From the NCBI GenBank assembly GCA_048270225.1, contig JBLWTG010000004.1, forward strand, positions 86,452 through 150,451: a stretch of 64,000 bases of DNA, given 5' to 3'. Shown one piece after another: positions 6,523 to 24,593 of this stretch; position 1 is the stretch's first letter, and each line of letters starts with the position of its first letter. The notes beneath the pieces are model-generated. The model did no database searches. It was not told where the DNA came from and saw nothing but the letters and a program-made list of their open reading frames with translations. The position numbers were made by a program, and so were the translations under genes. Source of the DNA: Pusillimonas sp. (GTDB lineage Bacteria; Pseudomonadota; Gammaproteobacteria; Burkholderiales; Burkholderiaceae_B).

Positions 6523-6548
6523 GAATTTAGACCCCCATGTGTCTCTAT

Positions 6549-6716
6549 CCCTCTCGCCGTGTTTATTGCCTGTGGGCCTGCGGACACTGCCCCTGTTGCT
6601 ATGTTTATTCCTCGCCGATTCGTGGACGCTGACCCCATCGCTATGCATATTGCCTGCTGGTTCGTGGTCACTGATCCTGTCGCTATGGATATCGCCTGCG
6701 GATCGGCGGGCATTGA
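6549..6716. repeat. Degenerate 42-bp tandem repeat x4
   Basis: Units start at 6549, 6591, 6633 and 6675 with shared core (C)CCT/CAT-CGCT-ATG...ATT-GCCTG...CTGA; all translations show a 14-residue period. Confidence 0.8.
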
Positions 6717-6736
6717 TTTGTTTGCCGGAATGTTTG

Positions 6737-7708: not shown

Positions 7709-7764
7709 ACTCATCGGCAATACCCGTCTTGGCGTCCGCCTGATACTCGCTGCGTTGATCGTAT

Positions 7765-10449
7765 ATGGGCGATATGATTAAACAAGCGATGACGACGCGT
7801 TGCAATGACAGGTTGAATGCAGATATGCCATATTCACGATACAGGCCAGGGTCAAAGAAATCAAGAAAATCAAAGGCGCTACAGACGTCAAAGAAGTCAA
7901 AGAAGTCAAAAACAATATGCGCCGGTACTGCAGGCCTGATAGGGTTGCTGATGATCTGTACGAATGCCAGCGCGGACGTGTCCGCCGCAAGTTCGCCAGT
8001 CACGAACGCGCGAGGCGGGCCCACACTTTTCTTGAACACAGCGGACGCATCTTCTGCTTCCGGACCCCGGTTCGCGTTGTGCAATGATTACTGCGCCTTG
8101 GTTGACCGCAATGGAGCCCTGGTGGCGCCGCGTGTGTTCGAGTCGATTACAAGTTTCAACGGCCCGGCGACGGTGTACAAGCACGACGGCAAGCTCGGTG
8201 CGGTCGATAAGCGGGGTCGCACAATCATCAAGCCCGTGCATACCTCGTTGTATCGGTTGGACGACAGTCCGTTCTTTGCGTCCAATGACGATTCCGGCGA
8301 GGATGTCGGCATGCCAGCCATGAGCACGCTTTACGGTATGGACGGGCAGGTGATCATCCAGAAGCCAAGGAAGGACAGTATGGTCGGCGCCTGGCTGAAC
8401 CATCCATACTACACCGCGTGCGCGGCGCCTCTCTCTTCCGATTCCCATTGCGCTATGGTCTTTGTCGATGATCAGGGGCGCGACGAAATCAGGTTCTCCG
8501 ATTTTCTTGAAAACGGCAAGGACCCGCTGGTTGCGGCAAGCACGGATGGCGTCCATTATGGCTATGTGGATACCTCGCTGAGGTTTGTCGTGCCGCCGAC
8601 GTTTACCGGGGCTCGCCCATACAGTGATGGTTACGCCGTTGTTTCTACAGACCAGGGCTCCGGCCTGCTCGATGCGCAGGGTGATGCGGTGATTGAGCCG
8701 GGGCGCTACAACGATATTTTTCCGGATGACAGCGCGCTCTTCATCACGGCCTATGCGAAGAATGATCGCCGCTGCGGCACGTATGTGCGCGCCGACGGTT
8801 CAGTAGTGGCATTGCCGGAGGGCATATGTCCTTCAGTGCTGACCGATGGCACCCGCAAGTTCGGCTACGCGCTGATCAACGGTCCTCATGGCCTGGGCAC
8901 CGTCGACCAGGATGGTGTTGTCCTGATCGCGCCGCAGTATCCCTTGCTGAAAGGCATAGACCGCAACTACCTGATCTATGCCGACAAACCTGGCGAGGAT
9001 GCATTCAAGGGGATTCTGGACCGGCAGGGGAGAGTGGTGCTGCCTGCGCAATATACCTCGTTGGGGGTAGGGCCGAGGGGCACCTTCGTCGCCGCAACCC
9101 ACGCAGGTACAGGGCTGATCGGCCTTGACGGGAAATGGCGAGTATCGCCCAGGTTTGGCGGTGGCGAAAGGGTGTCGCCAGACCTCGTCGCCTTTTCCAT
9201 GCATGGCGCATACGGCAATAGCGTTGGCTATGCCTTCTATACCTCCGATGGCACGGCATTGCCTTATACCAGCCTGTATGTGCCGAACTATCTGTTCGCG
9301 GACGGAAAGCGATCCGTACTGAAGATTTTCGGCCCCCAGCATGAAATAGGGCTGGTTGCTCTCGATGGCAGGGTCATCGCGCCGCTGCTGCCAGACGTGC
9401 GCGATGTCGCCTACGTGGGAGAAGGGCTGTGGAAGGTGAGCATTCAGAATAAGCATGGTGCGGAAAATGATCTGGTCTACGATAGCGCAGGCCGGTTGCT
9501 GACGGCGCTGCAGCCTTACTCGGACATCTCCCGCTTTATGAAGGGTGCTGCGACGGCGCGCAAAAATGGCGATGCGGTACTTATCGACAAGGCGGGCAGG
9601 CAATTGGCCAGCTACGGCGCTTTGTTTCCGCAGTATGCGCACCGCGATGGCGACTCCATTGTCGAACGCAACCTGGATCGTTGCTACGTGGTAGATCCCA
9701 GCGCTGAGCCTGATGAGCTCGCTGCCCAATCGGGTAGCGACCGGCTTATCTGCGCTGACCCGACTTTGGCCAGGCTGTCGCGGCAGACCGAAAAGGAGTA
9801 TTTTGCCGCGCAAGCGCAATCATGCCTGCCTTCGGATTACTGGCCCTTGCGCCAGCCCTACGACAAAGCCATTGCACATTGCGGGGACGAGTCCTGCCTG
9901 AAGCAGGCCATGCTGGACTTTGAGCAGGCCATTGCCAGAACGAGCAGCGAGTGCGTTTCCGGCGTCGCGCCCCTAGGCACGTCATCGCGGCCCATTTCCG
10001 CCTCGTTGCAAAGGACTTTGTTCAAACAGGCCGAGCGTAGCGGCGAGCTTGAGATGGTATCGTCAGACGGTTCTGCGCTGGCACCCGGCGCCATGGATTA
10101 CACACGGCTGAAAATGGGTGGGCGCGAAGCCATCTTGCTGGCCGCGCCCGGCACGGCGCCCAATGGTCCGTTCTGGCTGTTCTCGCCCGACAGCGCCGGG
10201 CGATGGCAGACGATCCTCCAGGATTACGCGGGCTATCTGCGACCACTGGAGGGTACGGATAAATCGCGGCACGGCATGCCGGTTCTGCGCACGCAGCAGC
10301 ACGCCAGCTGCTGCGAGCATACCGTCAATTATTACGCGTTTGACGGCCAGCACTATCAAACCCTGATGTCCTGCACCCAGCGCTACGATCAGGACGATCC
10401 GGTCTTGTTTTGCGACGGCGATCCTGATCCGGAAAAGAGCGCGCACTGA
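7765..10449 (+). CDS. Exported WG-repeat protein with LprI/DUF1311-like helical domain and C-terminal domain
   Basis: Repeats such as YGYVDTSLRFVVPPTF, KGILDRQGRVVLPAQY and GLIGLDGKWRVSPRF; LprI-like ICADPTLARL...HCGDESCLKQ; hydrophobic signal-like segment. Start codon uncertain. Confidence 0.7.
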   Translation: MGDMIKQAMTTRCNDRLNADMPYSRYRPGSKKSRKSKALQTSKKSKKSKTICAGTAGLIGLLMICTNASADVSAASSPVTNARGGPTLFLNTADASSASGPRFALCNDYCALVDRNGALVAPRVFESITSFNGPATVYKHDGKLGAVDKRGRTIIKPVHTSLYRLDDSPFFASNDDSGEDVGMPAMSTLYGMDGQVIIQKPRKDSMVGAWLNHPYYTACAAPLSSDSHCAMVFVDDQGRDEIRFSDFLENGKDPLVAASTDGVHYGYVDTSLRFVVPPTFTGARPYSDGYAVVSTDQGSGLLDAQGDAVIEPGRYNDIFPDDSALFITAYAKNDRRCGTYVRADGSVVALPEGICPSVLTDGTRKFGYALINGPHGLGTVDQDGVVLIAPQYPLLKGIDRNYLIYADKPGEDAFKGILDRQGRVVLPAQYTSLGVGPRGTFVAATHAGTGLIGLDGKWRVSPRFGGGERVSPDLVAFSMHGAYGNSVGYAFYTSDGTALPYTSLYVPNYLFADGKRSVLKIFGPQHEIGLVALDGRVIAPLLPDVRDVAYVGEGLWKVSIQNKHGAENDLVYDSAGRLLTALQPYSDISRFMKGAATARKNGDAVLIDKAGRQLASYGALFPQYAHRDGDSIVERNLDRCYVVDPSAEPDELAAQSGSDRLICADPTLARLSRQTEKEYFAAQAQSCLPSDYWPLRQPYDKAIAHCGDESCLKQAMLDFEQAIARTSSECVSGVAPLGTSSRPISASLQRTLFKQAERSGELEMVSSDGSALAPGAMDYTRLKMGGREAILLAAPGTAPNGPFWLFSPDSAGRWQTILQDYAGYLRPLEGTDKSRHGMPVLRTQQHASCCEHTVNYYAFDGQHYQTLMSCTQRYDQDDPVLFCDGDPDPEKSAH

Positions 10450-10524
10450 CGCAAACAGTGCGTCATCCGGCGCCACTTGTTCGTGCTACGCATCATCGAT
10501 ACAGCGCCACCGCATCAGGCCGGT

Positions 10525-11223
10525 TTACCCCTTGCTTTTAGTCGTCTGATCGCAGCGTGGTGCAAACTGAAGCGTTTTCATATCGCGGGATAAGCAGGCT
10601 GATTGACTTCCGGCCAGATTTCCGTAAGAGAGGAAGTGCAACGTTAAGCGCTTTCCGGCTACCGAAAAGGCGGCAAGTTTATCGGGATCGAGCCTATCCG
10701 AGTCTTGAGATGCCAGCTCAATGTCTTTGGCACAACTTTCAATCAGGTTGGAGGAAACCAGGCGTGGCGTTGCAGCATCCATCTTTAAAACGTTCAGATA
10801 AACTTCCACTCCCGCCCCACAGAATCCTGAGCCGCTACCGCCGCTTGTCCTGATTGCCGTAATGAACAAACCAAATCCGCGCTCAAGATAAGGTTGGAGT
10901 CCGATGGGCAGAAAACGAATGCGCTTTTCAGCACCCACCAAAACCGGGCTATAGCCCTCGGGGATATTGTTGACGATGAGCTGAGTCGACGGCGCTAAGA
11001 TTTCCAGCACGCCAGCCTCTGGTACATAACGCAATGCGTAGCGATTGTTGTCCTTGTCGTAGAGCGCAGACTCGATCTGCCCTGAGGGCAATGACTGGGG
11101 GTTTGTTGTATCGATACTCACAGGCCTGGATGCAGGCGGATTGGCCGCCAGGCCTGCAGAGGAGAGGGCGAGCAAGCCCAGTGTGATACAACAGATGTTT
11201 AGTAATTTTTGGGTGTTCTTCAT
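10525..11223 (-). CDS. Exported hypothetical protein (Cys-containing, lower GC)
   Basis: Signal peptide MKNTQKLLNICCITLGLLALSSAGLAA; motif GSGFCGAGVEVYL...LIESC. Confidence 0.7.
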   Translation of the reverse strand: MKNTQKLLNICCITLGLLALSSAGLAANPPASRPVSIDTTNPQSLPSGQIESALYDKDNNRYALRYVPEAGVLEILAPSTQLIVNNIPEGYSPVLVGAEKRIRFLPIGLQPYLERGFGLFITAIRTSGGSGSGFCGAGVEVYLNVLKMDAATPRLVSSNLIESCAKDIELASQDSDRLDPDKLAAFSVAGKRLTLHFLSYGNLAGSQSACLSRDMKTLQFAPRCDQTTKSKG

Positions 11224-11267
11224 TGCAATATGACGTTCCGGCACGCGCTCACGCAAGGATGTGTTCA

Positions 11268-13241
11268 ATGTCCCTTAACGCCTTACGCTGCAGCGGGGCC
11301 CTTTTACTGAGCCTGGGCCTGTGCGCCACTGGCTATGCTGTGAAGGCGCAGGCTGGCGCAAAGCCGTATTCCAGAAGCATATCCGAAGCGCAGGATTTCG
11401 CCCATCAGCATCAGTGGGTGCCGGCCATCGACGCCGCGCGGCGCGCATACGGCGCCGCGGACAATGATTACGGCCGGATTGAGGCGGGCTATATGATCGG
11501 TCGCCTGCAACAGCAGCAGGGTGATATTCCTGGCGTGCTCGATACATTCAGGATGCTGCTGCCGCAAGTACGCTGCGCCGACGGTGTTCGCGAGGCGTCC
11601 CGCTTGCTGAGCTTGTCCGCACATTTTTCCTTTCTGGACCGGAATCCGGAGCAAGGTTATCAGTTCATTACACAGGCGATAAAGGAAGTCCAGCGCGATA
11701 CGGATCCGTGGGGACAGGTAGATCCCAGGGACTGGCTGGTTCAGGACGGCGGGCATGTCTTGCGTTATCGTCTGGCGGGAATAGCACTGCCTACGCTTGC
11801 GGACACGCGCATTGTCAGCTTGCTTGATGCAGGGCGCCGGGGGAGCGCGGCCTATCTGGATTATGTCGACGGGCTGGAGCAAGCGCCTCTGAGGACGTTG
11901 CGCGTTCGCATTGGCTTGCGGGGCGATGCGGCAAAGGAAGCGACGCTCAATGAGGCGCTGGACGCATCGGAACAAATCCGCCGCTTGTCAGGGGCAGGAG
12001 ATCAGTCGGGCAGGCAAGAGGAGCCCGGAGTGCCTGTCGTTGCGCAGTTCGCGCCGGTCGGCAGTCAGCATGCGGCCAGGATTACCGGGTATACCGACAA
12101 AGACCAGGGACCGACCCGACTGGGGCTATGGATAGCCCGTCTCGGCAGTTGGCAGGTGGAAATAGATGCCACCTGGACGGCGGGCGAGGACCAGAGGGCG
12201 CAGCACGCCATGGCGGGGTTTTTTGCCGCCATCACATGGCGTGCAGAGGATGCGCTGGCGCCTGAAGACAGTGCCCGTTTTGAGGCACTGCAGGCGCAGG
12301 CCGTACAGGCGATTGACGCCAGAGACTGGACGCAGGCCGCGCAAGCGGCCGAGGCTGCCTTGCCGCTGGCCATGTTTCCCGATGAGCGGGCCAGACTGTA
12401 TTCCGCCCAGGGCATTGCGGCGAGCGAGCGCGGCAAGGCGGCACAGGCGCTGTCATTGCTGCAAAGTGCGCTTTTCGACTGGCGCTACAGCGTGATGGCG
12501 CGCAACGATGAGGATTTATTCGACCAGACGGTGCTACACGCGGCCGACGCTGCCTTTCGCCAGGGCGAAACCAAGCGGGCGATACGCTGGATGAACGAAA
12601 TCGCCGGCATCAGCATTGACGGTAGCTGGCATCTGGACCGCGATACCGGGGTCATGCAGCATCGGACCACCAGCATATCGCTGCCGCCGCGCCTGGGCGT
12701 GTTCCTGCGGGAGTCGTTTACGGATCACACCGCTTATTACGTACGAACGCATCCAGTGCAGCGCCTGGGCGTGACCATTCTTGCGCCGGATCCGACGGCA
12801 GGCCTGGACGACACCATCATTCGGCTGCGTCACTGGATGCAGGACCGCATGGGTCTGGAGGTGTCGGGCGTGACGCATACGGTATTTGCGCCGGCCTCGT
12901 ATGGCAAGGCCCAGGGCGATTTCGTACTGTTTCATGTTATGCGTCCCGGGTCCCGGCCTGGCGTGATGAATATCGGCGCCGACGCCTGGCCTACGGGGCC
13001 CCGCATGATGGGATTCTGGATCTCGCGTATCGCCGGCGCCCAGCTTGTATTGCGTGGCGAATGGGCGCCCGGGGACACGCAGGCTCGCACTGCGTTCAAT
13101 GAGGCGGCCGAGGCGTTTGACTGGCCGGCTTCGGTTGAACACATGAAAACACTGCCGACGTATCCAGCGCCAGCCAGTCGTTCACCGTGTCGAGCTGATC
13201 TTTCTGCAGACACAGCCCAGTTGCCTGAATCAGGGCGGTAG
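11268..13241 (+). CDS. Exported hypothetical protein with TPR-like helices and internal duplication
   Basis: Signal peptide MSLNALRCSGALLLSLGLCATGYAVKAQA; two similar modules, each TPR-like helices followed by a beta-rich domain. Confidence 0.7.
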   Translation: MSLNALRCSGALLLSLGLCATGYAVKAQAGAKPYSRSISEAQDFAHQHQWVPAIDAARRAYGAADNDYGRIEAGYMIGRLQQQQGDIPGVLDTFRMLLPQVRCADGVREASRLLSLSAHFSFLDRNPEQGYQFITQAIKEVQRDTDPWGQVDPRDWLVQDGGHVLRYRLAGIALPTLADTRIVSLLDAGRRGSAAYLDYVDGLEQAPLRTLRVRIGLRGDAAKEATLNEALDASEQIRRLSGAGDQSGRQEEPGVPVVAQFAPVGSQHAARITGYTDKDQGPTRLGLWIARLGSWQVEIDATWTAGEDQRAQHAMAGFFAAITWRAEDALAPEDSARFEALQAQAVQAIDARDWTQAAQAAEAALPLAMFPDERARLYSAQGIAASERGKAAQALSLLQSALFDWRYSVMARNDEDLFDQTVLHAADAAFRQGETKRAIRWMNEIAGISIDGSWHLDRDTGVMQHRTTSISLPPRLGVFLRESFTDHTAYYVRTHPVQRLGVTILAPDPTAGLDDTIIRLRHWMQDRMGLEVSGVTHTVFAPASYGKAQGDFVLFHVMRPGSRPGVMNIGADAWPTGPRMMGFWISRIAGAQLVLRGEWAPGDTQARTAFNEAAEAFDWPASVEHMKTLPTYPAPASRSPCRADLSADTAQLPESGR

Positions 13242-15594
13242 CGGGCAAGTCGGCGAGTTCTTGCTGCGAGAGAAACAAAGGCTTGCCGGTATCGCCTTGA
13301 ACATGCCAGCTTTGATCGAACACGCGCAGGCTTAGTCCGGCATCGTCGAAATATTCGAATAGCGGCATGCAGCCCAGGGGCTGGGTGCGGATGCGCAGGC
13401 TGCCGGCGCCCGGCTCGAGCAACAGCAGTTGCCACAGGCGTTGTCCATTGCTGCCGCGTTCGGGCAGGATGCGGGTCAGCGCGAGATAGCGGCCGTCATG
13501 GGACCAGATCATGGCGGGGCCCAGCCCCGACAAGGCGCAGCCCGTTGCCGTGAGCAGGTAGCCGTCTTGCCGTGGTTCGTCGGGCATGGGCGAGCTGCTG
13601 CCGTAATCCGTCTGGGCGCCAAACAGCCAGGCTGCGTCAGCCAGGCCAGGCGCCGGCAAGACGAAATCGCCGTCGGCATTGGCCGCTTGCGGTTGATCGA
13701 CGATGCGCCAGCTGGGCAGCAGACTCAGGCCATGCGTCGTATGCACGGCATAACGCAACTGGAAACAAAGTCGGCTGTTTTCGCGCGGCGCAAGAAAGGC
13801 GGCGGCCTGCGTCGGGGATGGCGCGGGCTCCTGGAAGCGGCGTAGTGCCGTACCGAATGCCGGCGCGTGAGGGGTTTCTTTTTCGAGTCGCCCCACTATT
13901 TCGATGAGGCTGATCCGTCCGGCCCGGAAGTCTTGCAGACGCATGAACAATAGACTGGGGCCGGCCAGCAGACGGCGCTGGTCGGTGTCGGCAAGTACAA
14001 GCTGACCGGGAGCCTGGGGCGCATCGGCGAAGGAGATCAAGGCCAGGCTGCGGCCATCGTCGCTGACCCGGTGATCCAGCAGCCATTCGCCCGGCAATTC
14101 CCACGTCCCGATGTGGCAGCGGTAGGCGCCCAGGCCGTTTCGGCCGTCGCGCAGCCATTGCAGCCGGGCGCGCAATCCGCAGGCCAGCAATGCGGATGAC
14201 ACGTCTGTTTCTCCGCGTTCGCCCCGGCTGTCGAGCGGCAGGGATAGACGCAAGGATGTGCGCGGGCATTCGCCCAGGATCATCCGCCCGTCCGGCGCAT
14301 GTCCGATCAATACCTGCATGTCGCTGTGGATGCTGTAGAGCTGGTCGCCGTGGCTTTGGCTGGACAGGCCGGGAAAGTCGAGCTTGGCTTCGATCTGCAG
14401 GGCGTGGCCGTCCAGTGCGCATGGGTCGTACCAGGTCAGCGAAGGTTCGTTTTCACCTGGCTGCCACGGGGCAGGCAGCTGTCGCCAGCCTGCGTCGGAC
14501 TGCCATAGCCAGAAGCCGGATTTCCCGGGATCGCCATCCAGGGAGTCTGCCTGGATGGCCAGGGCCTGCCCATCCTCCCGCCACGCGACGGGCGTCTGAC
14601 CGGTGATCAGCAAGGGGGTGTCCTGCCCATTGATGCGTAGCCTGTAGCGCGGGTCGTACAGTGGCGCCAGCGGGTCCTGCAGGGCTTGCAGTGTATCGGG
14701 AATCTGCAGGTGTGCGGTCAGCGCCAGGCTGCCGTCGGGTGCGGGGAATTCGCGCGTCGGGACCGATATTCGCTCCTGCCAGGGACCAGGCGCTATCCAG
14801 AGATCGCGCACAGGTTGCAGGTCGACGACATTGGCCCCGGCCAGGAACTGGCTCAGCCCGGCGGAGAGGGGCGTATCCTGGCCCGACGGGACGCCGGCTT
14901 CCCGTGCTGTCGTGCCGGAAAATTCGTCTATATCCCAGAACGCGGGATCGTCGCTGCCATGATGGAGACGGTGGGCCAGCCGGTCCAGCACCAGCAGTCC
15001 GAAGCGCTGGCGCGATGGCAATGCGGCGGCGAAATAACGGCCATCTCTGGAAAAGCGGGCGCCGGCGCCCACGCCTTGCAGCACAACGCCGTCGGGAAAC
15101 AGAAAGTCGCCGTAGGCCGGGCCGCCCATGGCGATTTCGCCAAGGCTGCCAAGCTGGCGTATGGACTGGCCTTCCGGCGTCATGGCTGGCCACTCGTTGC
15201 GGTCTTGCCCGCCGCCGTTGCGAGACGCGGGAGACAGGCGCAGGCGGCGTTCGTAGCTGGCCTGCATGCTGAATCCTGCCAGGATGACCAGCAGGCATAC
15301 GGCGATGTTCCAGTAGGCGGGAAATACCAGGAGCATGCGGCAGGCCAGCCCGAGAATCACGCCGGTCAGCCACCGGCTTATATGCAGGGCGCTTGTCCGC
15401 CTGCCTGTTTTGGCGGTCGCGCCGATGGCAATCAGCATGATGGCCATCACGCAGACCGTCCAGGTCGTCGGCGCTGCGGTCGCCAGCGCAAGCGGCAGCA
15501 GCAGTTGGACCAGCGTGAGCGTCAGGTTCAGCAGCAGGCGGAAAAACGATTTGTGCGCAGGGCTTGGGCGGCGCGGCAGCATTGGTTGGCTCAT
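13096..15594 (-). CDS. 832-aa membrane-anchored hypothetical protein with beta-propeller-like repeats
   Basis: Four N-terminal TM segments; repeated RFSRDGRYFAA, RVSDDGRSLAL and IWSHDGRYLAL motifs; ATGA overlap with the desaturase stop at 15591-15594. Confidence 0.75.
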   Translation of the reverse strand: MSQPMLPRRPSPAHKSFFRLLLNLTLTLVQLLLPLALATAAPTTWTVCVMAIMLIAIGATAKTGRRTSALHISRWLTGVILGLACRMLLVFPAYWNIAVCLLVILAGFSMQASYERRLRLSPASRNGGGQDRNEWPAMTPEGQSIRQLGSLGEIAMGGPAYGDFLFPDGVVLQGVGAGARFSRDGRYFAAALPSRQRFGLLVLDRLAHRLHHGSDDPAFWDIDEFSGTTAREAGVPSGQDTPLSAGLSQFLAGANVVDLQPVRDLWIAPGPWQERISVPTREFPAPDGSLALTAHLQIPDTLQALQDPLAPLYDPRYRLRINGQDTPLLITGQTPVAWREDGQALAIQADSLDGDPGKSGFWLWQSDAGWRQLPAPWQPGENEPSLTWYDPCALDGHALQIEAKLDFPGLSSQSHGDQLYSIHSDMQVLIGHAPDGRMILGECPRTSLRLSLPLDSRGERGETDVSSALLACGLRARLQWLRDGRNGLGAYRCHIGTWELPGEWLLDHRVSDDGRSLALISFADAPQAPGQLVLADTDQRRLLAGPSLLFMRLQDFRAGRISLIEIVGRLEKETPHAPAFGTALRRFQEPAPSPTQAAAFLAPRENSRLCFQLRYAVHTTHGLSLLPSWRIVDQPQAANADGDFVLPAPGLADAAWLFGAQTDYGSSSPMPDEPRQDGYLLTATGCALSGLGPAMIWSHDGRYLALTRILPERGSNGQRLWQLLLLEPGAGSLRIRTQPLGCMPLFEYFDDAGLSLRVFDQSWHVQGDTGKPLFLSQQELADLPATALIQATGLCLQKDQLDTVNDWLALDTSAVFSCVQPKPASQTPRPPH

Positions 15595-16757
15595 GTTGTC
15601 GGTGAGGAGGCGCCTGCGCGGCGTTGTTGCTGGTGTGCCATGATGGACAGGCAGCATGTCAGGATGCCGTGGACGCCCAGCGCCGTGTAGGCGATCAGCC
15701 CGGTCCAGTAGCGGAATGCATTATTGTCAGGCGTGGCGAGAAACAGGCATAGCAGCGTGGCGGTGACGACAGTCCAGCCCGGTGCGGCCCAGCGCCGGCC
15801 GTCAGCCACGGCCCCCAGGGCCAGCGTGGCCAGCACGATGAGCGCAAAATGCGCCCATGCAGGATCTGCCCGGCTGTCGGCTGCGCCGCTTGCGATGCCG
15901 CCTTGTCCTGCGGAGATGTAATGAATGACCACGGCAAACAACAGCACGCTGCCCAGGCCGATCAGGATATCGCTGGCGCGAAAGGCACTGGTGCGCTGAA
16001 CAGGCTGTTGGGAGAACGCCAGCAGGCGCAGCAAGGGAGCGTTGTTGGCGATCAGCGGGTTGTTGCTTCCCGCAGGCTCTGCCGTGCCATAACGTAGTGG
16101 CACATCGGGCAGGGCGCGCTGGAAGGAGCCGAACAGTTTGTCCCACAGCAGAAAGGTGCCGCCGAAGTTGCGGTTCACATAGGCGGGCGCCAGGCCATGA
16201 TGCACGCGGTGATGCATAGGCGTGACCATCCAGCGCTCCAGCAACCCGGAGTCCCCCACCAGTCCGTTGTGGTTGTAGAACTGGATGGCGTAGTGGATGG
16301 ACGATACGATGATGAAGACATCGAGCGGCACGCCAAGTACCGCCAGTCCGATGATGAATGGCAGGTTGCTCAGCGAGGAATACCAGGAGTTGCGTATGCC
16401 TAGCGACAGGTTGAAGTGCTCGCCCTGATGATGCAGAACATGGATCGCCCACAACAGCGGAATCCGATGATGCAGGCGATGCATCCAGTAAAAGCAGAAG
16501 TCCCAGGCAACGAACGCGAAGACCCATTGCCATGGCGGGCTCCATTGATCCACCCAATGCAGGTTGGCGTGCTCGAGCACCAGTCCGAAGGCCGCGATTT
16601 CCAGTCCCCGGAAATACCACATCACCAGGTGGCCGGAATCCAGGTTCAAGGCAAGCTCGCGCCAGGGAATGGGTTCGGCACGCCTCCGCTTGCGGATCAG
16701 CAGCTCGCCCAGCACGCACAGCAGCATTGCTGCCAGAGGAATGGCAAGCGTGTTCAT
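15591..16757 (-). CDS. Sterol desaturase / fatty acid hydroxylase family protein
   Basis: His boxes YWMHRLHH, HVLHH and HHRVHH; NFGGTFLLWDKLFGSF; ATGA overlap with the PAP2 gene. Confidence 0.9.
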   Translation of the reverse strand: MNTLAIPLAAMLLCVLGELLIRKRRRAEPIPWRELALNLDSGHLVMWYFRGLEIAAFGLVLEHANLHWVDQWSPPWQWVFAFVAWDFCFYWMHRLHHRIPLLWAIHVLHHQGEHFNLSLGIRNSWYSSLSNLPFIIGLAVLGVPLDVFIIVSSIHYAIQFYNHNGLVGDSGLLERWMVTPMHHRVHHGLAPAYVNRNFGGTFLLWDKLFGSFQRALPDVPLRYGTAEPAGSNNPLIANNAPLLRLLAFSQQPVQRTSAFRASDILIGLGSVLLFAVVIHYISAGQGGIASGAADSRADPAWAHFALIVLATLALGAVADGRRWAAPGWTVVTATLLCLFLATPDNNAFRYWTGLIAYTALGVHGILTCCLSIMAHQQQRRAGASSPTT

Positions 16758-17386
16758 AAGTGTTGCGGCCGCTGGGCCGTCATAAGGGCAGGACGACATG
16801 CAAGCAGGCCGGTGGCAAGGCCGGTCAGCAGTCCGGCCGCCAGGTCCAGGGCGACGTGCTGGCGTATCTGGATGACTGAAATGCAGATGGCCAGGCCCCA
16901 GACGCCGACCAGCAGCGAACGCCAGGGGCGCGCGCGCTCGAGCAGGGCCATGACGCTGAGCAGGGTCAGAGCGCCGTGCAGGGAGGGCAGGCAGTTTTGT
17001 CGTGTATCCAGATGGGTCAGCCAGCCAAGCACGGTGGCGCTCACGCCGTCGCCGGCCGGGGGCGGGTTGACCAGTTGCGTGGGCCATGCCAGAAACACCG
17101 CGCAACAGAATAGTGCGCTGATCTGCATCGCGCGGCGTAGCCAGACCAGCCGGGCGAGGTCGGCCGACAGGAAGGCAAACGGAAGCAGGGCAAAAAAAGA
17201 AAGGTATAGCCAGACGCCGGTGGCGGAGAATGGCACATAGCGGTCCAGCGCGCTTTCGTGCAATACGGCGGCAGGCCCATGCAATACCCCTGCCGCCGTG
17301 TATGCCAGGCCGACCGTGCCCCAGCCCAGCAGCATCTGCCAGAGCCGGAATGGATAGTTTGCGCCTGGCGGGCTTGGTCGTCTCAT
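16754..17386 (-). CDS. PAP2-superfamily membrane phosphatase/phosphotransferase (AUR1/IPC-synthase-like)
   Basis: Motifs NCLPSLHG and RQHVALDLAAG; multiple TM helices. Confidence 0.8.
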   Translation of the reverse strand: MRRPSPPGANYPFRLWQMLLGWGTVGLAYTAAGVLHGPAAVLHESALDRYVPFSATGVWLYLSFFALLPFAFLSADLARLVWLRRAMQISALFCCAVFLAWPTQLVNPPPAGDGVSATVLGWLTHLDTRQNCLPSLHGALTLLSVMALLERARPWRSLLVGVWGLAICISVIQIRQHVALDLAAGLLTGLATGLLACRPALMTAQRPQHL

Positions 17387-18672
17387 GGCCGTTTCCCAGT
17401 GTATTGCATGCGTATGATACGCCGCCGCTTGGTGGCAATGTGGCTGTCTGGCAGACGGTTATGCAGGGTCCATGTCAACGTTGCGTCAACGCCCAGCTGG
17501 TTCAGCACGGCTTGAAGTCGCCGTTGGCATTGCGCCGCCAGGGCAGTGCTTTCCACATGCAGGCTCAGTGCCCGCGGGCCGGTCTGAATCAGCCGGTAGT
17601 CTGCGGCCAGCGGCAATACCTGCGCAAATGCACGCGACAGTACATCGGCAAACACGGTGATCAGGCGGCCGTCCGCAGCAGGCAGCCTGAGCGTGTCGTC
17701 GCAGCGTCCTTCGATGCGATCCAGGGCCAGGGCGGCGCTGCCGCAAGGGCAGTCCTGTGCGCGCCGGACCAGTATGTCGTCCAACCGATAGCGCACGATG
17801 GGCTGGGTGCTGCGCGTAAAGTCCGTGATGATGGGGACGAAGCGGTGCTCGTCTATCCATTCAGGCTCGACCTGCAGGAATGCTTCGTTCAGATGCAGGG
17901 TGCCGTACGGGCAGCTTACGGCCAGAAAGCCCTCGGTGGCCTGGTAGATTTCGCCCGGATCGCCAAAGGCCGCGGCAATCAATGCGCGGTCCTGTGGCTG
18001 CAGGACTTCGGCCACCGAGATGGCTCTGACCGGCGCCAGGTCTACTCGTCCGGACTGCTGCGCCAGCGCCAGGGCGCATAGCACCTGTGCCGGCGCAACA
18101 ACAATGGTGGGCGCATAGTCGGCAAGCAGGTCGAGCTGGCGCTCGAATGGCGCAAACAGGTCGAAGAAGGAAAACGCGAGGCAGGGATTGTGCACGGAGT
18201 TGTAAAGCCTGTTGCCCGAGCGCAGCAGCAAGGCGACCCGCTCTTTGCGCCGCAGGCCATGCGGCAGCAGCTTGGCCAGCATGGTGCCGGCCCATTGTGC
18301 CTGTTCGCGCGCACTGGTGACAAAGACGCCGCGCGATCCCGACGTGCCCGAAGACAGTCCCACGCTATAGCCATGCAGCGTGGGACTGAAGTCGCGCGAG
18401 TGTTCCGCCTGCATGGCGCAGGACAAGACCTCGTTCAATCGCAGGCCGGCGGTGTTGATCCGGTCGAAATGCTGCATCATGGTTGCCTTGTCCATCAGCG
18501 GCCATGCGGATAGGGGCTCTGACAGCCATGGCGCGAAATAGGGGCTGCGTGTCAGCACGCGCTGCCGGAAGCGCTCGAGCTGGCGCGCCTGATGGCTTTG
18601 CAGCGCGTCCCTGTCGGTGAAGTTCAGACGCCTGGCGCGCCACCATGCATGGGCGATGCGGGCCGGTCTCAT
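17383..18672 (-). CDS. Adenylate-forming enzyme, F390 synthetase/PaaK-related
   Basis: P-loop LSSGTSGSRG, EIYQATEG and RYRLDD motifs. Confidence 0.85.
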   Translation of the reverse strand: MRPARIAHAWWRARRLNFTDRDALQSHQARQLERFRQRVLTRSPYFAPWLSEPLSAWPLMDKATMMQHFDRINTAGLRLNEVLSCAMQAEHSRDFSPTLHGYSVGLSSGTSGSRGVFVTSAREQAQWAGTMLAKLLPHGLRRKERVALLLRSGNRLYNSVHNPCLAFSFFDLFAPFERQLDLLADYAPTIVVAPAQVLCALALAQQSGRVDLAPVRAISVAEVLQPQDRALIAAAFGDPGEIYQATEGFLAVSCPYGTLHLNEAFLQVEPEWIDEHRFVPIITDFTRSTQPIVRYRLDDILVRRAQDCPCGSAALALDRIEGRCDDTLRLPAADGRLITVFADVLSRAFAQVLPLAADYRLIQTGPRALSLHVESTALAAQCQRRLQAVLNQLGVDATLTWTLHNRLPDSHIATKRRRIIRMQYTGKRP

Positions 18673-19478
18673 TCGAGTTCGCCCTCATGCGTCAGGCGGA
18701 TCTGCACATGGCCGCCTTGGTGCAGCTGGTTCAGTTTGCGCAAGGTGGCAAGATAGGCGCCGGCATCGTCGGTGATGAGGCTGGCCAGGGCCGAGGGTCC
18801 GATCAGTTTGCGATAGCTGGCGGGCGACCACGCGGCATCGGACGCCAGCAGTATCCAGTGATCGCCAGCGTGAATGAATGCGCCCAGGTGGCCGGCGGCG
18901 TGTCCGGGCAGCGGTACCAGCAGCACCTGATCTTCGGCGCCGGGCAGTGCGTAGCCATGCGTGAAGGGCGCCAGCTCCGCCGGCAGGGGGCGTTGTTCGA
19001 AGGACTCCACAAACCGCAGTCGCTGTTCGACATCGGCAGGCATCAGACCGGGAATGAAACCGCGGCGCAGGGCGGCGATGCCGCGCAAGCGGCGGGTCCG
19101 GTTCCAGCCGTCTTTGGCGCAGTACAGCGCGGTGCCGGGAAAGTCGTGCAGTCCGGCGATATGGTCGCCGTGGAAATGGGAAAGAATGATGCCGTCCAGA
19201 TCGTGCGGGCGCAGTCCGATTGCCTGCAACTGGCTGGCGGCGTCTTGCGAGTTTTCGAGATGGACCGGCGTGGCCAGGCGGTACAGGGCGAACAGGCCGG
19301 CCTGGCTGTGCGTGAGAAAGTGCGAGGCGTAGCCGGTATCCCATAGCCATTTTCCCTGGCCTGCTTCAATGAGATAGGCCCTTGCAGGAAAGCGGCAGCG
19401 CTTCCAGCCCGCACCCTTGAGCGCGACGCAGGCGCGATGCGTGCAGTATCCGGTGTCAAAGGTTTTAATACTGGCCAT
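18669..19478 (-). CDS. Metallo-beta-lactamase fold hydrolase
   Basis: HxHxDH motif SHFHGDHIAG, plus GHAAGH and SDAAW. Confidence 0.9.
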   Translation of the reverse strand: MASIKTFDTGYCTHRACVALKGAGWKRCRFPARAYLIEAGQGKWLWDTGYASHFLTHSQAGLFALYRLATPVHLENSQDAASQLQAIGLRPHDLDGIILSHFHGDHIAGLHDFPGTALYCAKDGWNRTRRLRGIAALRRGFIPGLMPADVEQRLRFVESFEQRPLPAELAPFTHGYALPGAEDQVLLVPLPGHAAGHLGAFIHAGDHWILLASDAAWSPASYRKLIGPSALASLITDDAGAYLATLRKLNQLHQGGHVQIRLTHEGELE

Positions 19479-20469
19479 GCTCGTGTACCCATTGTGCAGT
19501 CTGCCGGATGCCCTCATCCATCGTATAGGCGGGCCGGTAACCCAGCGTCTCGATGGCTCTGGCATTGTCCAGGGTCATGTCGTAATTGAGCGCGCCCACG
19601 CTGTAGCGCGTATACGCCGGTTCGCGTCCGGTGAGTCCGGACCAGCACGTCATGCCGCGCGCCGCCAGGCTGGCCAGTCGGTAGGGGACGCTGCGCAGGT
19701 GTAGCGGCCGGCCAAGCTCCCGACGAAAGAGCTGGTCCAGGACCTGGCCAAGGGGGCGCGGTTCGTGATTGGTGATATTGAAAGCCTGGCCGGAGAGGTG
19801 TGCCGGGCAGCGGCTCGCCAGTTGCATAGCCAGGACGGCATTGGGGGTGAAGGTCATGTCCATGAATGCCTGGCCGCCGCGGGGCAGGGATAACTGCCCA
19901 CGACCTTGGATCATCTTCAGCACCCTGGGCATGAGGACACGGTCATGGGCGCCGAACAAGGCGCGCGGACGCAGAATGACAAACACGGTGTCGGGATGCT
20001 GGCGGGCGTAGCGGCTCAGTATTGTTTCGGCCATCGCCTTGCTGCGCACATAATCGTTGGCATAGTGTCGAGCTCGATAGTGCTCCGGCACATTTCGCTG
20101 ATGCCGGTAATCAAAATAAAGCGAAGGGGTGGATACGTGCACGAAGTGGCTGACACCGGCAGCCACGGCGGCCTGTATCAGTTTTTCGGTCGCAGTGGCA
20201 TTGATGGCTTTGAAATTGGCTGGCGCGCCCCAGGGCGCGGAGAGCGCGGCGCAATGCCAAACCGTGGTTACGCCGCGCAGGAGCGGTTTCATGTCGGCGG
20301 CGGACAGGGCGGTCAGATCGGCAGCGAAAAACTGAGCGCCTTGTTTTTTGAGGGCCTGGCCCACTTCGGTGTTTCTACCGGTGGCGCGCAAGGATGCGCC
20401 TTGGACGCACAGGATATCGACGGCATTGCGGCCCAGTCCGCTGGTGGCGCCCGTGACGAGTATCGTCAT
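19465..20469 (-). CDS. NAD-dependent epimerase/dehydratase (3-beta-HSD-like extended SDR)
   Basis: LVTGATSGLG Rossmann motif, YVRSK (YxxxK), LRPRALFG. Confidence 0.9.
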   Translation of the reverse strand: MTILVTGATSGLGRNAVDILCVQGASLRATGRNTEVGQALKKQGAQFFAADLTALSAADMKPLLRGVTTVWHCAALSAPWGAPANFKAINATATEKLIQAAVAAGVSHFVHVSTPSLYFDYRHQRNVPEHYRARHYANDYVRSKAMAETILSRYARQHPDTVFVILRPRALFGAHDRVLMPRVLKMIQGRGQLSLPRGGQAFMDMTFTPNAVLAMQLASRCPAHLSGQAFNITNHEPRPLGQVLDQLFRRELGRPLHLRSVPYRLASLAARGMTCWSGLTGREPAYTRYSVGALNYDMTLDNARAIETLGYRPAYTMDEGIRQTAQWVHEHGQY

Positions 20470-21452
20470 AGCTGTAGCACGATGCCGCCCAGTGTCAGGC
20501 CTGCGCCAGTACCGAGCAGCAGGGCGCGCGAGCCAACCGCCAGTCGCCCGCTTTGCATGGCCTCGTGCAGCGCGGTCGGCAGTGATGCGGCCACCTGATT
20601 TCCATGCAAGCGGTAGATGTCGACAATGCGCCCGGGCGCCAGGCCCAGGTGCCGGCTCAAGTGCTGCATGGCTTGCAGGCTGGCCTGGTGCGGAACGATG
20701 ACATCGATCTGCGATAGCGGGGCCTGGTTTCTGAACAGAGCCTGAATGAAGTCATCGATGACCAGCAGGGTTTGCCTGAACAGGCGGCTGCCTTCCATGT
20801 GGAACAGGAAGTCCGATGCCTGTGCGCCATTGCGTGGTGTGCAGCGTGTTCCGCCGGCATGGATCTCGCAAAGACTTTTTCCGGCGGGATAGGTTTCCAT
20901 CCGATATGCCTGGATGCCCGACGAGCCATCGCCCTGTTCAACGATGACAGCAGCTGCGCCGTCGCCGAAAATGAGCGAGCTTTCAGGGTGCGACCAGTTC
21001 ACCCCGCGCGATGCGAGGTCGGAGGCGACGATGGCGATACGCTGATAGCTGCCGGCCAGCAGCAGCGAGGCGGCGATCTGCAGGGCAGCCAGAAAGCTCA
21101 GACAGCTTGCGTTGACGTCGAAGGCGGGGGTGCCGGAGGGCAGGCCCGCAGGTTCGAGCAGGCGTGCGCCCGTGCAGGGTAAGGCCTGCTCCGGAATGGC
21201 TGCGGCCGACAGGACCAGGTCGATGGAATCGGGTGTGACATGGCTGCGGGCCATGGCGTCGCGCAGCGCCGCCGCCGCCAGTTCTGATTGCGTTTCGTGC
21301 GGCCCGGCAAGATAGCGGCAGGCGACGCCGGATATTTTTTCGGCATACCCCGCAGGCTTGCCGAGCCAGGCATCCAGCTCGGCTGACGATACCTTCCGGG
21401 CGGGCAGGGCTTTGCCGGTGGAGATGAGTTTCAGCGGTAGTATCGATTTCAT
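20466..21452 (-). CDS. 3-oxoacyl-ACP synthase III (FabH/OleA-like condensing enzyme)
   Basis: Cys-His-Asn triad in DVNASCLSF, IVPHQAS and HGNQVAAS; FGDGAAA. Confidence 0.9.
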   Translation of the reverse strand: MKSILPLKLISTGKALPARKVSSAELDAWLGKPAGYAEKISGVACRYLAGPHETQSELAAAALRDAMARSHVTPDSIDLVLSAAAIPEQALPCTGARLLEPAGLPSGTPAFDVNASCLSFLAALQIAASLLLAGSYQRIAIVASDLASRGVNWSHPESSLIFGDGAAAVIVEQGDGSSGIQAYRMETYPAGKSLCEIHAGGTRCTPRNGAQASDFLFHMEGSRLFRQTLLVIDDFIQALFRNQAPLSQIDVIVPHQASLQAMQHLSRHLGLAPGRIVDIYRLHGNQVAASLPTALHEAMQSGRLAVGSRALLLGTGAGLTLGGIVLQL

Positions 21453-21650
21453 CGTGATGCCAGGCGTCGTGATGCGCCATGTCGCAGACGCGCATCGGAC
21501 AGGCCTCGCCCTATCATCCATAGTAGGGATGAGTATAGGTCAATGAGATGCGCGCGTCGGTGTTTTGCACCTGGGTCGTGTATCACTGCTCAGCGGTGTG
21601 TTGAAAAAACTGATGAATGTTTTGCTTGCTCATTTACAATTCCCAGTCAT

Positions 21651-24593
21651 ATGCGCTTCTTCTACCTCCCTCGTGCACGCGCTTTGCTGCGGCCGCATTG
21701 CCTCCTCGCCCAATCTCCCGTAGCTTCGCGCGCCGCATGGCGCCTGCCCGCGCTGCTGATGGCGCTGTTTCTTGGCATGCCGCAGGCATTTGCCGCAACA
21801 CAGTGCACCGGCACGGCGCAGTATGGCGAACCCTCGCAGCGTCTGCTTGATCCGGCGGGATCAAGCAGGCCGAATCTGTGCATACGGGATATGCACGAGG
21901 GGCGTGCCGCCGTTCGCCTGCCGCCTGCAGGCCAGAATATTGACGATGTGGTCGCCACCCATGATCTGCAGACGCATCGCTGGGGGTTTCTCGACAGCGA
22001 TGGGCACTTGGCGATCAAGCCTGTCTTTGAGCGTGTGGAGGCGTTCCATCATGGTCTGGCTGCCGCGCGCGACGGGGATAAATGGGGCTATGTCGACAGG
22101 CAGGGCCGCTGGGCGGTGCAGCCGCGTTTCGATCTTGCCGGTGCATTCACATCGGTTGGCCTGGCTCTGGTGCGTGAGGACGAGCGCCTGTCGTTCATTG
22201 ATCGCAAGGGCGATGCCGTAGGAAGTCCTTTGAGCAGCGACGTGCAGAACGCCTACCTTGGGGATGGCAAGCCTGCGCGGCTGGCCATGGCCTACAAGAA
22301 CCAATATATATCGCCGCAGGGCAGGCATTTCTATGCGCCGCCCGATGTGCAGGTTGTGGGGATTTTCAGCGACCAGGGCCTGTTCGTCGTGTCGGACGGC
22401 CACCGTCGCTACGGCTTGATGGATGACACATGGCAATGGATTGTTCCGGCCAGATACCGTGACATCGATACGGCGGCTACGCCGGAGAGCCTGACCATTG
22501 CCGAAGGCAGTGATGAAATGGCCTTGATCGCCCCTGATGGCAAGCTTGTTGTCAGCCATGCCGACAATATTCGTGCGCTGGGCAGGGACTTCTGGCTGGT
22601 CCAGCGCGATCGCAACGATTACAGCCTGCTTGATGCGGCAGGCAAGCCTGTTCAGACTTTTGACCGCAACACGGTAGCGGATCTGCGCTTCGAGAATCCA
22701 TTCGTGCTGCAAGTTGTCAAGGAAGGGATGGTCGTCTATGCACCTGGTCACGCGCCGGTCAGCGTGCCCGGGGCAGTTGCGGGCTCGCTGCTGTCCTCGC
22801 CCGATGTCCTGGTGTTGCGCAATGCTGCGGGAACCGTGACAGGACTGGTCACATCCGATGGCGCGTATATCGATGATGCGTCGGGTGCGTATGGTCTGGC
22901 GCAGATCGATCAGGCTCGTGTCCTCGGGCAGCGCATATGGCTCTACACGAATCAGGGCACGGTGCTGAATATCATCGATCGGAAGGGACACATGCTGCTT
23001 GATCCCTCGACCGTCAAGACGCTGGCCAACTACCGCAGCGAGCCGCTCGAGCATCCGGCAACAGACGGCCCCACGCCTGCCGTGATCGCCATAGTGGAAC
23101 AGGGGCCGGGCTATTGCGGCTGCGATGCGCCGGGGGCCGGGTTGCTGCTGTCTGACGGGCGCCTGAACATTCATGCCGACTGGACGGCAGTCGCCGCGCT
23201 GTCCGGCGACGACATCGCGTCATCGTCCGGCGTTGCGCCCGCCCAGCGCTTTGCGATCACGACAGCGCAAGGGACGGCCATGGTAGGCCCCGACGGTCAG
23301 CAGATACTGCCGTTTGGTCCGGACCATATCGGTCCGTTCAAAGATGGCTATGCGCTGGTCTACAGGCAGGGCGTCCCGCACGTGCTCGATTCAGCCGGCG
23401 CGCTTGCTCCTTTGCCGGATTTTTTTGCTGCGCAGATCGCCGGGCCGGCCTTGCTGCGCTTTCGTGAAACCGCCGCCGCGGATGCGCCCTGGGGGCTGTA
23501 CGACATAACGGACAAGAAAGTGGTGCTGGCCCCTGCCTTGTCCAGTATCGGCGATTTCCAGAACGGTCTGGCGGTGGCGACCGATGCATCGGGCAAGAAA
23601 GGGGTGATTGATGCGGCCGGGCATTGGGCTATTCCCGCCGACTATGCTGCCCTGCGGCCGCTGACGCCCGACTTGTGGAAGGTTCAGGCCGACGCCGGGG
23701 CGGACGGCGATGCTCCGACGGCGATCATGGACCGCGCCGGACAGCAGATCGTGCCGTTCACGTCAGATCTGTCCATTGATGTGGCTGCGGATCACTGGGT
23801 GACTGCGCGCAAGCGTACAGGTACAGGCGGATGGTTGTTCAGGCCGGACGGCCGGCTCGTTGTTGGCGGAGACGATATCCAGCTCAGCCGCACGGGGGCA
23901 TGGATAAGCGTCTTCAAGTCGGACGCACTGGGTTACGTGAACCCGAAGGGCGGCTGGGCCATCGCGCCGACCCCGGGCGGCTGGGGCTCCGAATTTGATC
24001 AGGCTTCGGGTCACGCCCTGTGGTTTCTGGGCGAGACTTCACGCATCATCGACGGTCATGGCAAAACCGTGGCTTCGCTGCCGGGAACAGGGTGGGACTG
24101 GCCGTCCGCATCCGCTTGGGCGGTCAGACATGTTCGTGATGGCGCCCGCCAGCACACGCTCTATGCCGATGCGAGCGGACACACCGTGCTTGAGCTGGAT
24201 GGCAACGCCGGGGTTTTCGAAGCTGGTCGCGCCGTCACGCTTGCCCCGCGCGGAGTGACGTTTCGCTGGGTGGATAAACAGGGCAGGGCGGTCGGATGGT
24301 CCTCGTTCGACGATCTGGGCGTGCTCGCCGATGGGCTCGCCTACGCCCAGACGGCCGGGCTCTATGGTTTTGTGGACGACAAGGGGCGTTTCGTCATTCC
24401 GCCTGTGTACAGCGCCGTGTCGCCTTTTTCGGAGGGGCGGGCGGTCGTTTCCACGCCGCTGAGTTCAATGATGATTGATAAGCAGGGCAGGCCGCTGGCG
24501 CGTGTCGTACAGGAGTGCGGTGTCATGGTGCTGTATGACGCTGACAACAGACGCGCGTGGCCGGCAGCCATGCCGGAAGGATGCGCCGGCTAG
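21651..24593 (+). CDS. Exported WG-repeat protein (~980 aa)
   Basis: HRWGFLDSDGHLAIKPVF, KWGYVDRQGRWAVQPRF, LYGFVDDKGRFVIPPVY; signal-like segment ending QAFAA. Start uncertain. Confidence 0.85.
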   Translation: MRFFYLPRARALLRPHCLLAQSPVASRAAWRLPALLMALFLGMPQAFAATQCTGTAQYGEPSQRLLDPAGSSRPNLCIRDMHEGRAAVRLPPAGQNIDDVVATHDLQTHRWGFLDSDGHLAIKPVFERVEAFHHGLAAARDGDKWGYVDRQGRWAVQPRFDLAGAFTSVGLALVREDERLSFIDRKGDAVGSPLSSDVQNAYLGDGKPARLAMAYKNQYISPQGRHFYAPPDVQVVGIFSDQGLFVVSDGHRRYGLMDDTWQWIVPARYRDIDTAATPESLTIAEGSDEMALIAPDGKLVVSHADNIRALGRDFWLVQRDRNDYSLLDAAGKPVQTFDRNTVADLRFENPFVLQVVKEGMVVYAPGHAPVSVPGAVAGSLLSSPDVLVLRNAAGTVTGLVTSDGAYIDDASGAYGLAQIDQARVLGQRIWLYTNQGTVLNIIDRKGHMLLDPSTVKTLANYRSEPLEHPATDGPTPAVIAIVEQGPGYCGCDAPGAGLLLSDGRLNIHADWTAVAALSGDDIASSSGVAPAQRFAITTAQGTAMVGPDGQQILPFGPDHIGPFKDGYALVYRQGVPHVLDSAGALAPLPDFFAAQIAGPALLRFRETAAADAPWGLYDITDKKVVLAPALSSIGDFQNGLAVATDASGKKGVIDAAGHWAIPADYAALRPLTPDLWKVQADAGADGDAPTAIMDRAGQQIVPFTSDLSIDVAADHWVTARKRTGTGGWLFRPDGRLVVGGDDIQLSRTGAWISVFKSDALGYVNPKGGWAIAPTPGGWGSEFDQASGHALWFLGETSRIIDGHGKTVASLPGTGWDWPSASAWAVRHVRDGARQHTLYADASGHTVLELDGNAGVFEAGRAVTLAPRGVTFRWVDKQGRAVGWSSFDDLGVLADGLAYAQTAGLYGFVDDKGRFVIPPVYSAVSPFSEGRAVVSTPLSSMMIDKQGRPLARVVQECGVMVLYDADNRRAWPAAMPEGCAG

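Follow-up and report, generated by a model that had tools for sequence, protein, structure and literature searches.

What does a tight run of seven genes, headed by a ketosynthase and ending in membrane proteins, produce in Pusillimonas sp., and do all of its members belong together? The run lies within a 64,000-nucleotide stretch of DNA (hereafter the window; assembly GCA_048270225.1, contig JBLWTG010000004.1, positions 86,452–150,451) and consists of seven uninterrupted open reading frames (ORFs) on the minus strand, from position 21452 down to 13096. The analysis described here leads to the proposal, to which we give an even chance of being right, that the six genes of segment 15591–21452 belong to a widespread, uncharacterised and horizontally mobile operon family that makes a tailored long-chain lipid by a Claisen-type route. 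The parts of the locus are, in the order of transcription:

21453–21650, no strand assigned: divergent intergenic region upstream of the ketosynthase gene, presumed (by inference only) to hold the promoter.
20466–21452, minus strand: ketosynthase (KS), a FabH-like β-ketoacyl-acyl carrier protein synthase III (KAS III) of 328 aa and the first core gene; Pfam ACP_syn_III and ACP_syn_III_C.
19465–20469, minus strand: extended short-chain dehydrogenase/reductase (SDR), 3-β-hydroxysteroid dehydrogenase/OleD-like, 334 aa; Pfam Epimerase and 3Beta_HSD.
18669–19478, minus strand: hydrolase of the metallo-β-lactamase (MBL) fold, lactonase-like, 269 aa; Pfam Lactamase_B.
17383–18672, minus strand: ligase, an F390-synthetase-related (PaaK-type) adenylate-forming enzyme, 429 aa; NCBIfam TIGR02304.
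16754–17386, minus strand: PAP2_3-type integral membrane phosphatase or phosphotransferase, 210 aa; weak Pfam match.
15591–16757, minus strand: membrane di-iron FA_hydroxylase ("sterol desaturase family") with a C-terminal transmembrane (TM) extension, 388 aa; Pfam match.
13096–15594, minus strand: protein of 832 aa (or 828 aa) with a four-TM anchor and β-propeller-like domains; no Pfam or NCBIfam match.

A preliminary description of this DNA had reported seven genes on one strand, joined by five ATGA overlaps and one overlap of 14 bp, and all of these were found in place when the junction sequences were read directly: ATGA overlaps join KS to SDR, MBL to ligase, ligase to PAP2, PAP2 to hydroxylase and hydroxylase to the 832-aa gene, and the SDR/MBL junction is the 14-bp overlap. 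The last of the ATGA overlaps hinges on the choice of start codon, the source annotation beginning the protein four codons later (828 aa), which leaves a gap of 8 nt. The domain calls of that description were also upheld, six of them by Pfam and NCBIfam, and the catalytic motifs that it had considered intact were verified by a residue check.

To place the arrangement in a wider context, an alignment-derived scan covering one genome per species was used, in which 402 genomes encoded a relative of TIGR02304; the best 80 loci from these genomes were analyzed by tblastn and all-against-all ORF clustering (loci are labeled L, genomes G and contigs C in the following). The gene order KS–SDR–MBL–ligase, with all four genes detected, was present in 72 of the 80 loci, most of the others being cut contigs or carrying a divergent KS. 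As this order recurs so often, and extends into PAP2 and hydroxylase, the arrangement is far beyond what chance would produce. The loci span Burkholderiales, Enterobacterales, Pseudomonas and Chromobacterium. The PAP2 gene follows directly in ∼58 and the hydroxylase gene in ∼53 of the 80 loci; 54 contain a fatty-acid desaturase (PF00487), usually as the last gene and in ∼10 of them ahead of the core, and a 233-aa protein without assigned family often follows the desaturase. Of 5,426 complete Escherichia coli genomes, 673 (∼12%) contain the full seven-gene cluster ending in the desaturase, placed between narI and tRNA-Tyr. In strain SCU-115 (L091), for example, it occupies 4001–10882 between narI and two tRNA-Tyr genes, and in RefSeq the E. 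coli copy is likewise annotated with overlapping starts and with generic product names only. The preliminary description had regarded FabH–SDR–MBL–F390 as a recurring cluster without an assigned product; its recurrence is now borne out by these counts, and full-text literature searches yielded neither a description of the cluster nor a product; the two papers that name a "coenzyme F390 synthetase" in Pseudomonas do so in tables only. Among loci compared from the literature, gumO, chd2 and gumP of Xanthomonas lie beside the xanthan cluster, but for none of them has a part in xanthan synthesis been demonstrated (PMC2585010), and an F390-type gene is not mentioned at that locus.

Outside the four core genes, the composition of the cluster varies. 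Core-only loci occur in Cupriavidus basilensis OR16 and on the metagenomic contig that carries the closest ligase; Xenorhabdus has PAP2 upstream and no hydroxylase; and Paraburkholderia and Trinickia have the desaturase before the core. In Ewingella, Mangrovibacter and Superficieibacter (L046, L067, L070 and L079), PAP2, hydroxylase and desaturase are replaced by a second OleD-like SDR together with a GT21 glycosyltransferase, which come after the core (at ∼11266–13403 in L046); the best NCBIfam match of the GT21 protein is HpnI. The family thus consists of a soluble core of fixed order (KS, SDR, MBL and ligase) and a variable membrane tailoring module. Within this family, the window represents a form without the desaturase: no homologue of the usual PF00487 desaturase was found anywhere in the genome by tblastn, nor one of the 233-aa protein. 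Three other genomes of the host's GTDB family carry the same six-gene form without desaturase, at 41–58% identity to the window proteins. A desaturase remnant between the hydroxylase and 832-aa genes was considered and ruled out, since the two genes overlap or abut and leave no space. Some loci show further features around the cluster: two tandem desaturase paralogues follow the hydroxylase in Serratia, Pectobacterium and Pseudomonas brassicacearum (for example L043, 12925–15164), narGHJI adjoins the cluster also in Serratia and in other Escherichia species, and in 11 of the 14 Ralstonia loci read, the gene immediately upstream of the KS encodes a regulator of the Crp/Fnr type (cNMP_binding and HTH_Crp_2; for example L036, 6354–7058). 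No regulator of the Ralstonia kind is present in the window.

The place that the desaturase usually takes is occupied in the window by the 832-aa gene. Could all seven genes then form one unit, with the 832-aa protein acting as lipid exporter, scaffold or receptor and functionally filling the desaturase slot? Its start at, or no more than 8 nt from, the hydroxylase stop, its strand, its nature as a membrane protein and its placement exactly where relatives have their last gene would all agree with such a role. However, it has no counterpart in any of the 80 related loci. Its ∼40 relatives in databases are mostly annotated "hypothetical protein" and belong to Pseudomonas protegens, P. chlororaphis, P. 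solani, P. tohonis and P. syringae. Where the context of homologues was inspected (P. protegens, a metagenomic contig and two other genera of the host family), they stand alone in unrelated surroundings with no lipid genes nearby, and both host-family genomes with such a stand-alone homologue lack TIGR02304. An AlphaFold2 model based on 33 homologues (pLDDT 87) has four N-terminal TM helices (residues 17–117) followed by all-β domains, and a Foldseek search with it returned generic β-propeller matches only (TM-scores 0.10–0.15), none of them to a catalytic or transporter protein. A seven-gene functional unit is therefore considered improbable. As the gene is absent from the 80 loci and its homologues stand alone, it does not belong to the operon family but encodes an unrelated propeller protein anchored in the membrane, and it lies up against the operon's 3′ end, in the desaturase's usual place. 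It may be co-transcribed with the operon, but no evidence was obtained for a role of its product in the pathway chemistry. Of the seven-gene operon proposed in the preliminary description, the tight run of seven genes thus stands, whereas only six of them are conserved together. The window operon is, in other words, a compositional variant in an orphan family, with the desaturase missing and an extra, unrelated gene attached.

An 827-aa gene that follows the hydroxylase in one host-family genome was examined as a possible counterpart of the 832-aa gene and rejected, as it encodes a fimbrial usher (Usher, PapC_N and PapC_C). In that genome (L097 in G125, a lower-GC member of the host family with 48% GC), the six-gene form is directly followed by the usher gene at 11932–14412. 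The 3′ end of the 832-aa gene, in turn, overlaps the 3′ end of a convergent ORF of 672 aa (11223–13241, plus strand, with a coding-like GC pattern) by 146 bp (13096–13241), and this overlap covers Trp807, a family-invariant residue of the 832-aa protein.

Which chemistry the six conserved genes may carry out depends in the first place on the KS. Compared with solved structures, it scored highest against MxnB (170 bits) and CorB (163 bits), the KAS III enzymes that form the α-pyrones myxopyronin and corallopyronin, followed by FabH from E. coli, Neisseria meningitidis and Burkholderia xenovorans (125–149 bits), whereas the score against OleA was ∼55 bits. It stays under every FabH cut-off (NF005541, 328 versus 402; NF006829, 206 versus 249; TIGR00747, 194 versus 292) and is 29% identical to the separate housekeeping FabH of the same genome (contig C5). 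By these scores, the KS is not a housekeeping FabH, and it is closer in sequence to MxnB/CorB and FabH than to OleA. The triad Cys117–His255–Asn285 and a leucine, Leu91, are invariant across 72 homologues, and the motifs VNASCLSF and PHQxS as well as an insertion near residues 200–215 are common to the KS and MxnB/CorB. The tree that was calculated contains only FabH, MxnB/CorB and the KS family and is an unrooted arrangement of three clades from which sisterhood cannot be read; only path lengths and the position of the window KS as sister to that of Cupriavidus basilensis OR16 (support 98/97) were taken from it.

Leu91 is informative as to the nucleophile. Mapped through MxnB, it lies at the position of Val94 of that enzyme, of Glu117 of OleA (Xanthomonas campestris) and of Glu105 of PpyS (PMC4578411). 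In OleA and PpyS, it is this glutamate that, as the base, takes a proton from a plain acyl chain, whereas MxnB and CorB have Val94 at that site since their nucleophile sits between two carbonyls (Kresovic et al, PMC4578411). A hydrophobic residue in place of the glutamate thus favors a malonyl or β-ketoacyl nucleophile over the joining of two plain chains as in the Ole pathway.

The resemblance to MxnB/CorB raises the possibility that the product is a small molecule, a signal or an antibiotic. In that case, the KS would fuse a β-ketoacyl and an acyl thioester to a dialkyl α-pyrone or a related lactone, which SDR, MBL enzyme and ligase would remodel and the membrane enzymes would decorate on its alkyl chains. 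The rank of MxnB and CorB as closest solved relatives of the KS, the active-site motifs common to all three and the hydrophobic residue at the Val94 position are consistent with this idea; so is the relationship of the MBL enzyme to lactonases, including quorum-quenching acyl-homoserine lactone (AHL) lactonases. Pyrone-forming ketosynthases are, moreover, widespread, and some of them make signals (PMC4578411). However, the identity of the KS to MxnB is only 35%, compared with 31% to FabH, and the tree cannot tell which of the two groups would be its sister. MxnB and CorB operate in large polyketide synthase (PKS)/nonribosomal peptide synthetase clusters on carrier-protein-bound chains; the window has no PKS or carrier protein, and the partner enzymes are others. 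In the 80 loci, neither a LuxR-type receptor nor any other sensor is conserved next to the cluster, and PAP2, the His-box hydroxylase, the desaturase and GT21 are a better fit to a membrane lipid carrying a head group than to a diffusible pyrone. A pyrone or lactone is accordingly regarded as an unlikely product.

The second frame of reference is the OleABCD system for olefins and the OleACD-type systems for lipstatin and nocardiolactone, to which the preliminary description had drawn a parallel. Transferred to the window, the KS would join two plain acyl chains, the SDR would reduce the 2-alkyl-3-oxo acid, the F390-type enzyme would close a β-lactone and the MBL enzyme would either replace OleB or leave the β-lactone or olefin as it is. 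The parallel holds at the level of enzyme classes: four of them lie in one operon and map one-to-one on OleA, OleD, OleC and OleB, and the closest solved relatives of the KS perform two-chain condensations. Among the NCBIfam models, the SDR does match the OleD 2-alkyl-3-oxoalkanoate reductase (NF042422) best, with HpnA next; its score, however, is 133 bits compared with an equivalog cut-off of 580 bits, and its nearest solved structure is NSDHL (6jkg). The SDR motifs GATSGLG and Y140xxxK144 are present. For the ligase, the match to TIGR02304 ("F390 synthetase-related") is well above threshold (491 bits; cut-off, 251.9), whereas no Pfam family, AMP-binding (PF00501, that of OleC) included, was matched at E < 0.01. 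It is the only TIGR02304 copy in the genome. As the ligase is of the PaaK/F390 type and has no AMP-binding match, it is not an OleC-type ANL enzyme, contrary to what had been proposed before. Its nearest solved structures are the phenylacetate-CoA ligase PaaK (4r1l), AjiA1 (6wuq) and the PaaK-like ligase 6siw, the latter two of which form ester bonds; like these and coenzyme F390 synthetase, it has the superfamily's characteristic SSGTSG, YxxTEG (here YQATEG) and RYRLDD motifs and the C-terminal lysine (Lys415), but it forms a separate family and scores only 22–33 bits against the solved members. The MBL enzyme has the motif H101xH103xD105H106, and its best relatives in NCBIfam and the PDB are 4-pyridoxolactonase and AHL lactonases. 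The earlier suggestion that an MBL hydrolase stands in the place of the α/β-hydrolase OleB agrees with the MBL fold found here and with the lack of any α/β-hydrolase in the cluster.

Orthology to the Ole enzymes, as opposed to correspondence of classes, did not hold for any window protein, as judged from the OleA score of the KS (∼55 bits, compared with 125–170 bits for FabH, MxnB and CorB), the invariant leucine in place of the glutamate base across the 72 homologues, the distance of the SDR from the OleD cut-off and the family of the ligase. In addition, an enzyme of the lactonase fold would reopen a β-lactone rather than decarboxylate it, and the window adds membrane tailoring genes that the Ole systems do not have. 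An Ole-like route thus appears quite unlikely.

The four soluble activities could also be ordered the other way round, as a β-oxidation-like catabolic route in which the MBL enzyme opens an exogenous lactone, the ligase makes the CoA thioester of the hydroxy acid, the SDR oxidizes it to the 3-oxo form and the thiolase-fold enzyme cleaves it, with the di-iron enzymes oxidizing alkyl chains like AlkB. Such an order would be in line with the catabolic CoA ligases among the relatives of PaaK and with the fact that PF00487 includes alkane hydroxylases. KAS III enzymes with a Cys-His-Asn triad, however, are condensing enzymes that are not known to act as thiolytic thiolases; the cluster has no conserved transporter, regulator or additional β-oxidation gene with it, and neither PAP2 nor its GT21 alternative would have a role in such a route, which is therefore considered very improbable. 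Each of these three explanations, Ole-like, pyrone-forming and catabolic, is rated clearly below the proposed lipid pathway.

What points to a lipid is, above all, the membrane module. The window PAP2 protein scored 25.6 bits with PAP2_3 (gathering score 27) and 19.8 bits with PAP2, and each of the two models matched all 10 family members scanned, with best E-values of 6.3e-10 (PAP2_3) and 9.8e-8 (PAP2). Hydrophobic segments were detected, and the motifs PSLH137 and R175xH177xxxD181 are present, with His137, His177 and Asp181 invariant in the family; the KxxxxxxRP motif is absent from the family members checked. When the family profile was compared with the PDB, the matches to LpxE (E = 0.08) and Aur1 (E = 0.16) were non-significant, and phosphatase and transferase could not be separated by them. 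The hydroxylase is assigned with a higher score (FA_hydroxylase, 92.8 bits) and has three histidine boxes (HRLHH, HVLHH and HHRVHH) and at least five hydrophobic segments; its best NCBIfam match, OlsE, reached 67 bits compared with a cut-off of 475 bits. PAP2_3 and FA_hydroxylase here, and FA_desaturase or GT21 in the relatives, recall the eukaryote-type tailoring of sphingolipids by Aur1/SMS, Sur2/Scs7 and the GT21 glucosylceramide synthase. Unlike sphingolipid systems, the cluster has neither a serine palmitoyltransferase nor a ceramide synthase, the top NCBIfam match of its GT21 protein is the hopanoid enzyme HpnI, the PAP2 match is weak, and the profile hit to Aur1 is non-significant. GT21 is the ceramide glucosyltransferase family. 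Tailoring modules of PAP2_3, FA_hydroxylase and FA_desaturase in most loci and of a second SDR plus GT21 in others can replace one another, and this exchange suggests more strongly than anything else that the product of the core is a lipid alcohol to which a head group is attached. Elsewhere, all of these families act on long-chain lipid alcohols.

From the closest relatives of the soluble enzymes, that is, the head-to-head condensing enzymes MxnB/CorB for the KS, a 3-oxo-acid reductase for the SDR and lactonases for the MBL enzyme, a series of steps may be proposed. The KS would carry out a Claisen condensation of an acyl thioester with a partner having an activated methylene (a malonyl or β-ketoacyl thioester), and the SDR would reduce the resulting 3-oxo group to a 3-hydroxyl. 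By hydrolyzing a thioester or a lactone, the MBL enzyme would release or open an intermediate, and the free carboxylate would be adenylated by the PaaK-type enzyme for joining through an ester, amide or lactone linkage. In the membrane, the long-chain hydroxy lipid made in this way would be hydroxylated, and the PAP2_3 enzyme would add or remove a phospho head group. The product is thus most likely, as far as can be predicted from sequence, a tailored long-chain hydroxy lipid. The expectation of the preliminary description that it would be long-chain and membrane-associated is plausible, given three integral-membrane tailoring enzymes.

Several points weigh against this proposal. Each of the chemical steps is deduced from family resemblance at 30–35% identity or weaker, and the order in which the MBL enzyme and the ligase are placed is arbitrary. 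The PAP2 assignment is weak, the window protein scoring under the Pfam gathering score. No acyl carrier protein, acyltransferase or transporter is conserved in the cluster. As regards co-transcription, a consensus scan detected no promoter in 21453–21650, and the promoter and terminator counts for the whole region equaled the expectation from shuffled sequence.

A more specific version of the lipid pathway can be formulated, although we regard it as speculative and rather doubtful. According to it, the core would be a Claisen route, independent of pyridoxal phosphate, to a new class of membrane lipids, two-chain or 3-hydroxy and in this sense "ceramide- or mycolate-like", with modular head groups (attached by an Aur1-like PAP2_3 enzyme here and by GT21 elsewhere) and tailoring by Sur2-/Des-like di-iron enzymes. 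If true, such a lipid would occur in Burkholderiales, Pseudomonas, Serratia, Pectobacterium and ∼12% of E. coli.

How did the host come to carry the cluster? Its family is related to Bordetella and Achromobacter, and its Tgt protein falls into one cluster with those of these genera at 90% identity. TIGR02304 is rare among its relatives: of 151 sampled genomes of the host family, 5 encode it, and of 401 sampled from the whole class, 2 do, whereas the four congeners sampled all lack it. The core proteins of the window are nearest to those of Cupriavidus basilensis OR16 (70, 61, 68 and 66% identity). Synteny with two congeners spans corC–lnt and ends at window position 28895 (lnt); none of the window genes at 124–27435 has a counterpart within 17 kb past lnt in the two congeners, and the genes that the nearest congener has beyond lnt are scattered or absent in the host genome. 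The GC content at third codon positions is 0.73–0.76 in the operon, compared with 0.80–0.86 in housekeeping genes of the window. The rarity in the host family, the lost synteny, the lower third-position GC content and the affinity to Cupriavidus together indicate horizontal acquisition into a variable region; the operon was thus probably gained by horizontal transfer and sits in a variable island.

The surroundings of the operon in the window contain other large genes. Proteins with WG_beta_rep repeats flank it on both sides (7765–10449, 894 aa; 21543–24593, 1016 aa; 24640–27435, 931 aa) and form, together with the unassigned 672-aa ORF at 11223–13241, a ∼20-kb block of large proteins of unknown function. 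Nearer the start of the window, an ORF of 796 aa (2318–4708) has Pfam matches to DUF802 and an apolipoprotein-like repeat. The lnt gene for apolipoprotein N-acyltransferase at 28895–30547 has a second paralogue in the genome (C9, 80263–81816; 51% identity), and the nearest congener likewise has a second one.

The locus is akin to thiolase-based lipid and metabolite pathways already known. What the window adds is that a six-gene form of the cluster without desaturase exists and recurs in the Bordetella/Achromobacter-related family, that the cluster is mobile and located in a variable island, and that a tight overlap with a neighbor, here the 832-aa gene, is by itself no proof of membership in the pathway. 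The cluster at large is a translationally coupled biosynthetic operon conserved in hundreds of proteobacterial species, among them plant pathogens and insect symbionts, and in about one-eighth of complete E. coli genomes. Identifying its product would add a class of lipids or metabolites to well-studied bacteria and would also give a function to TIGR02304, to which the library label "F390 synthetase-related" assigns none.

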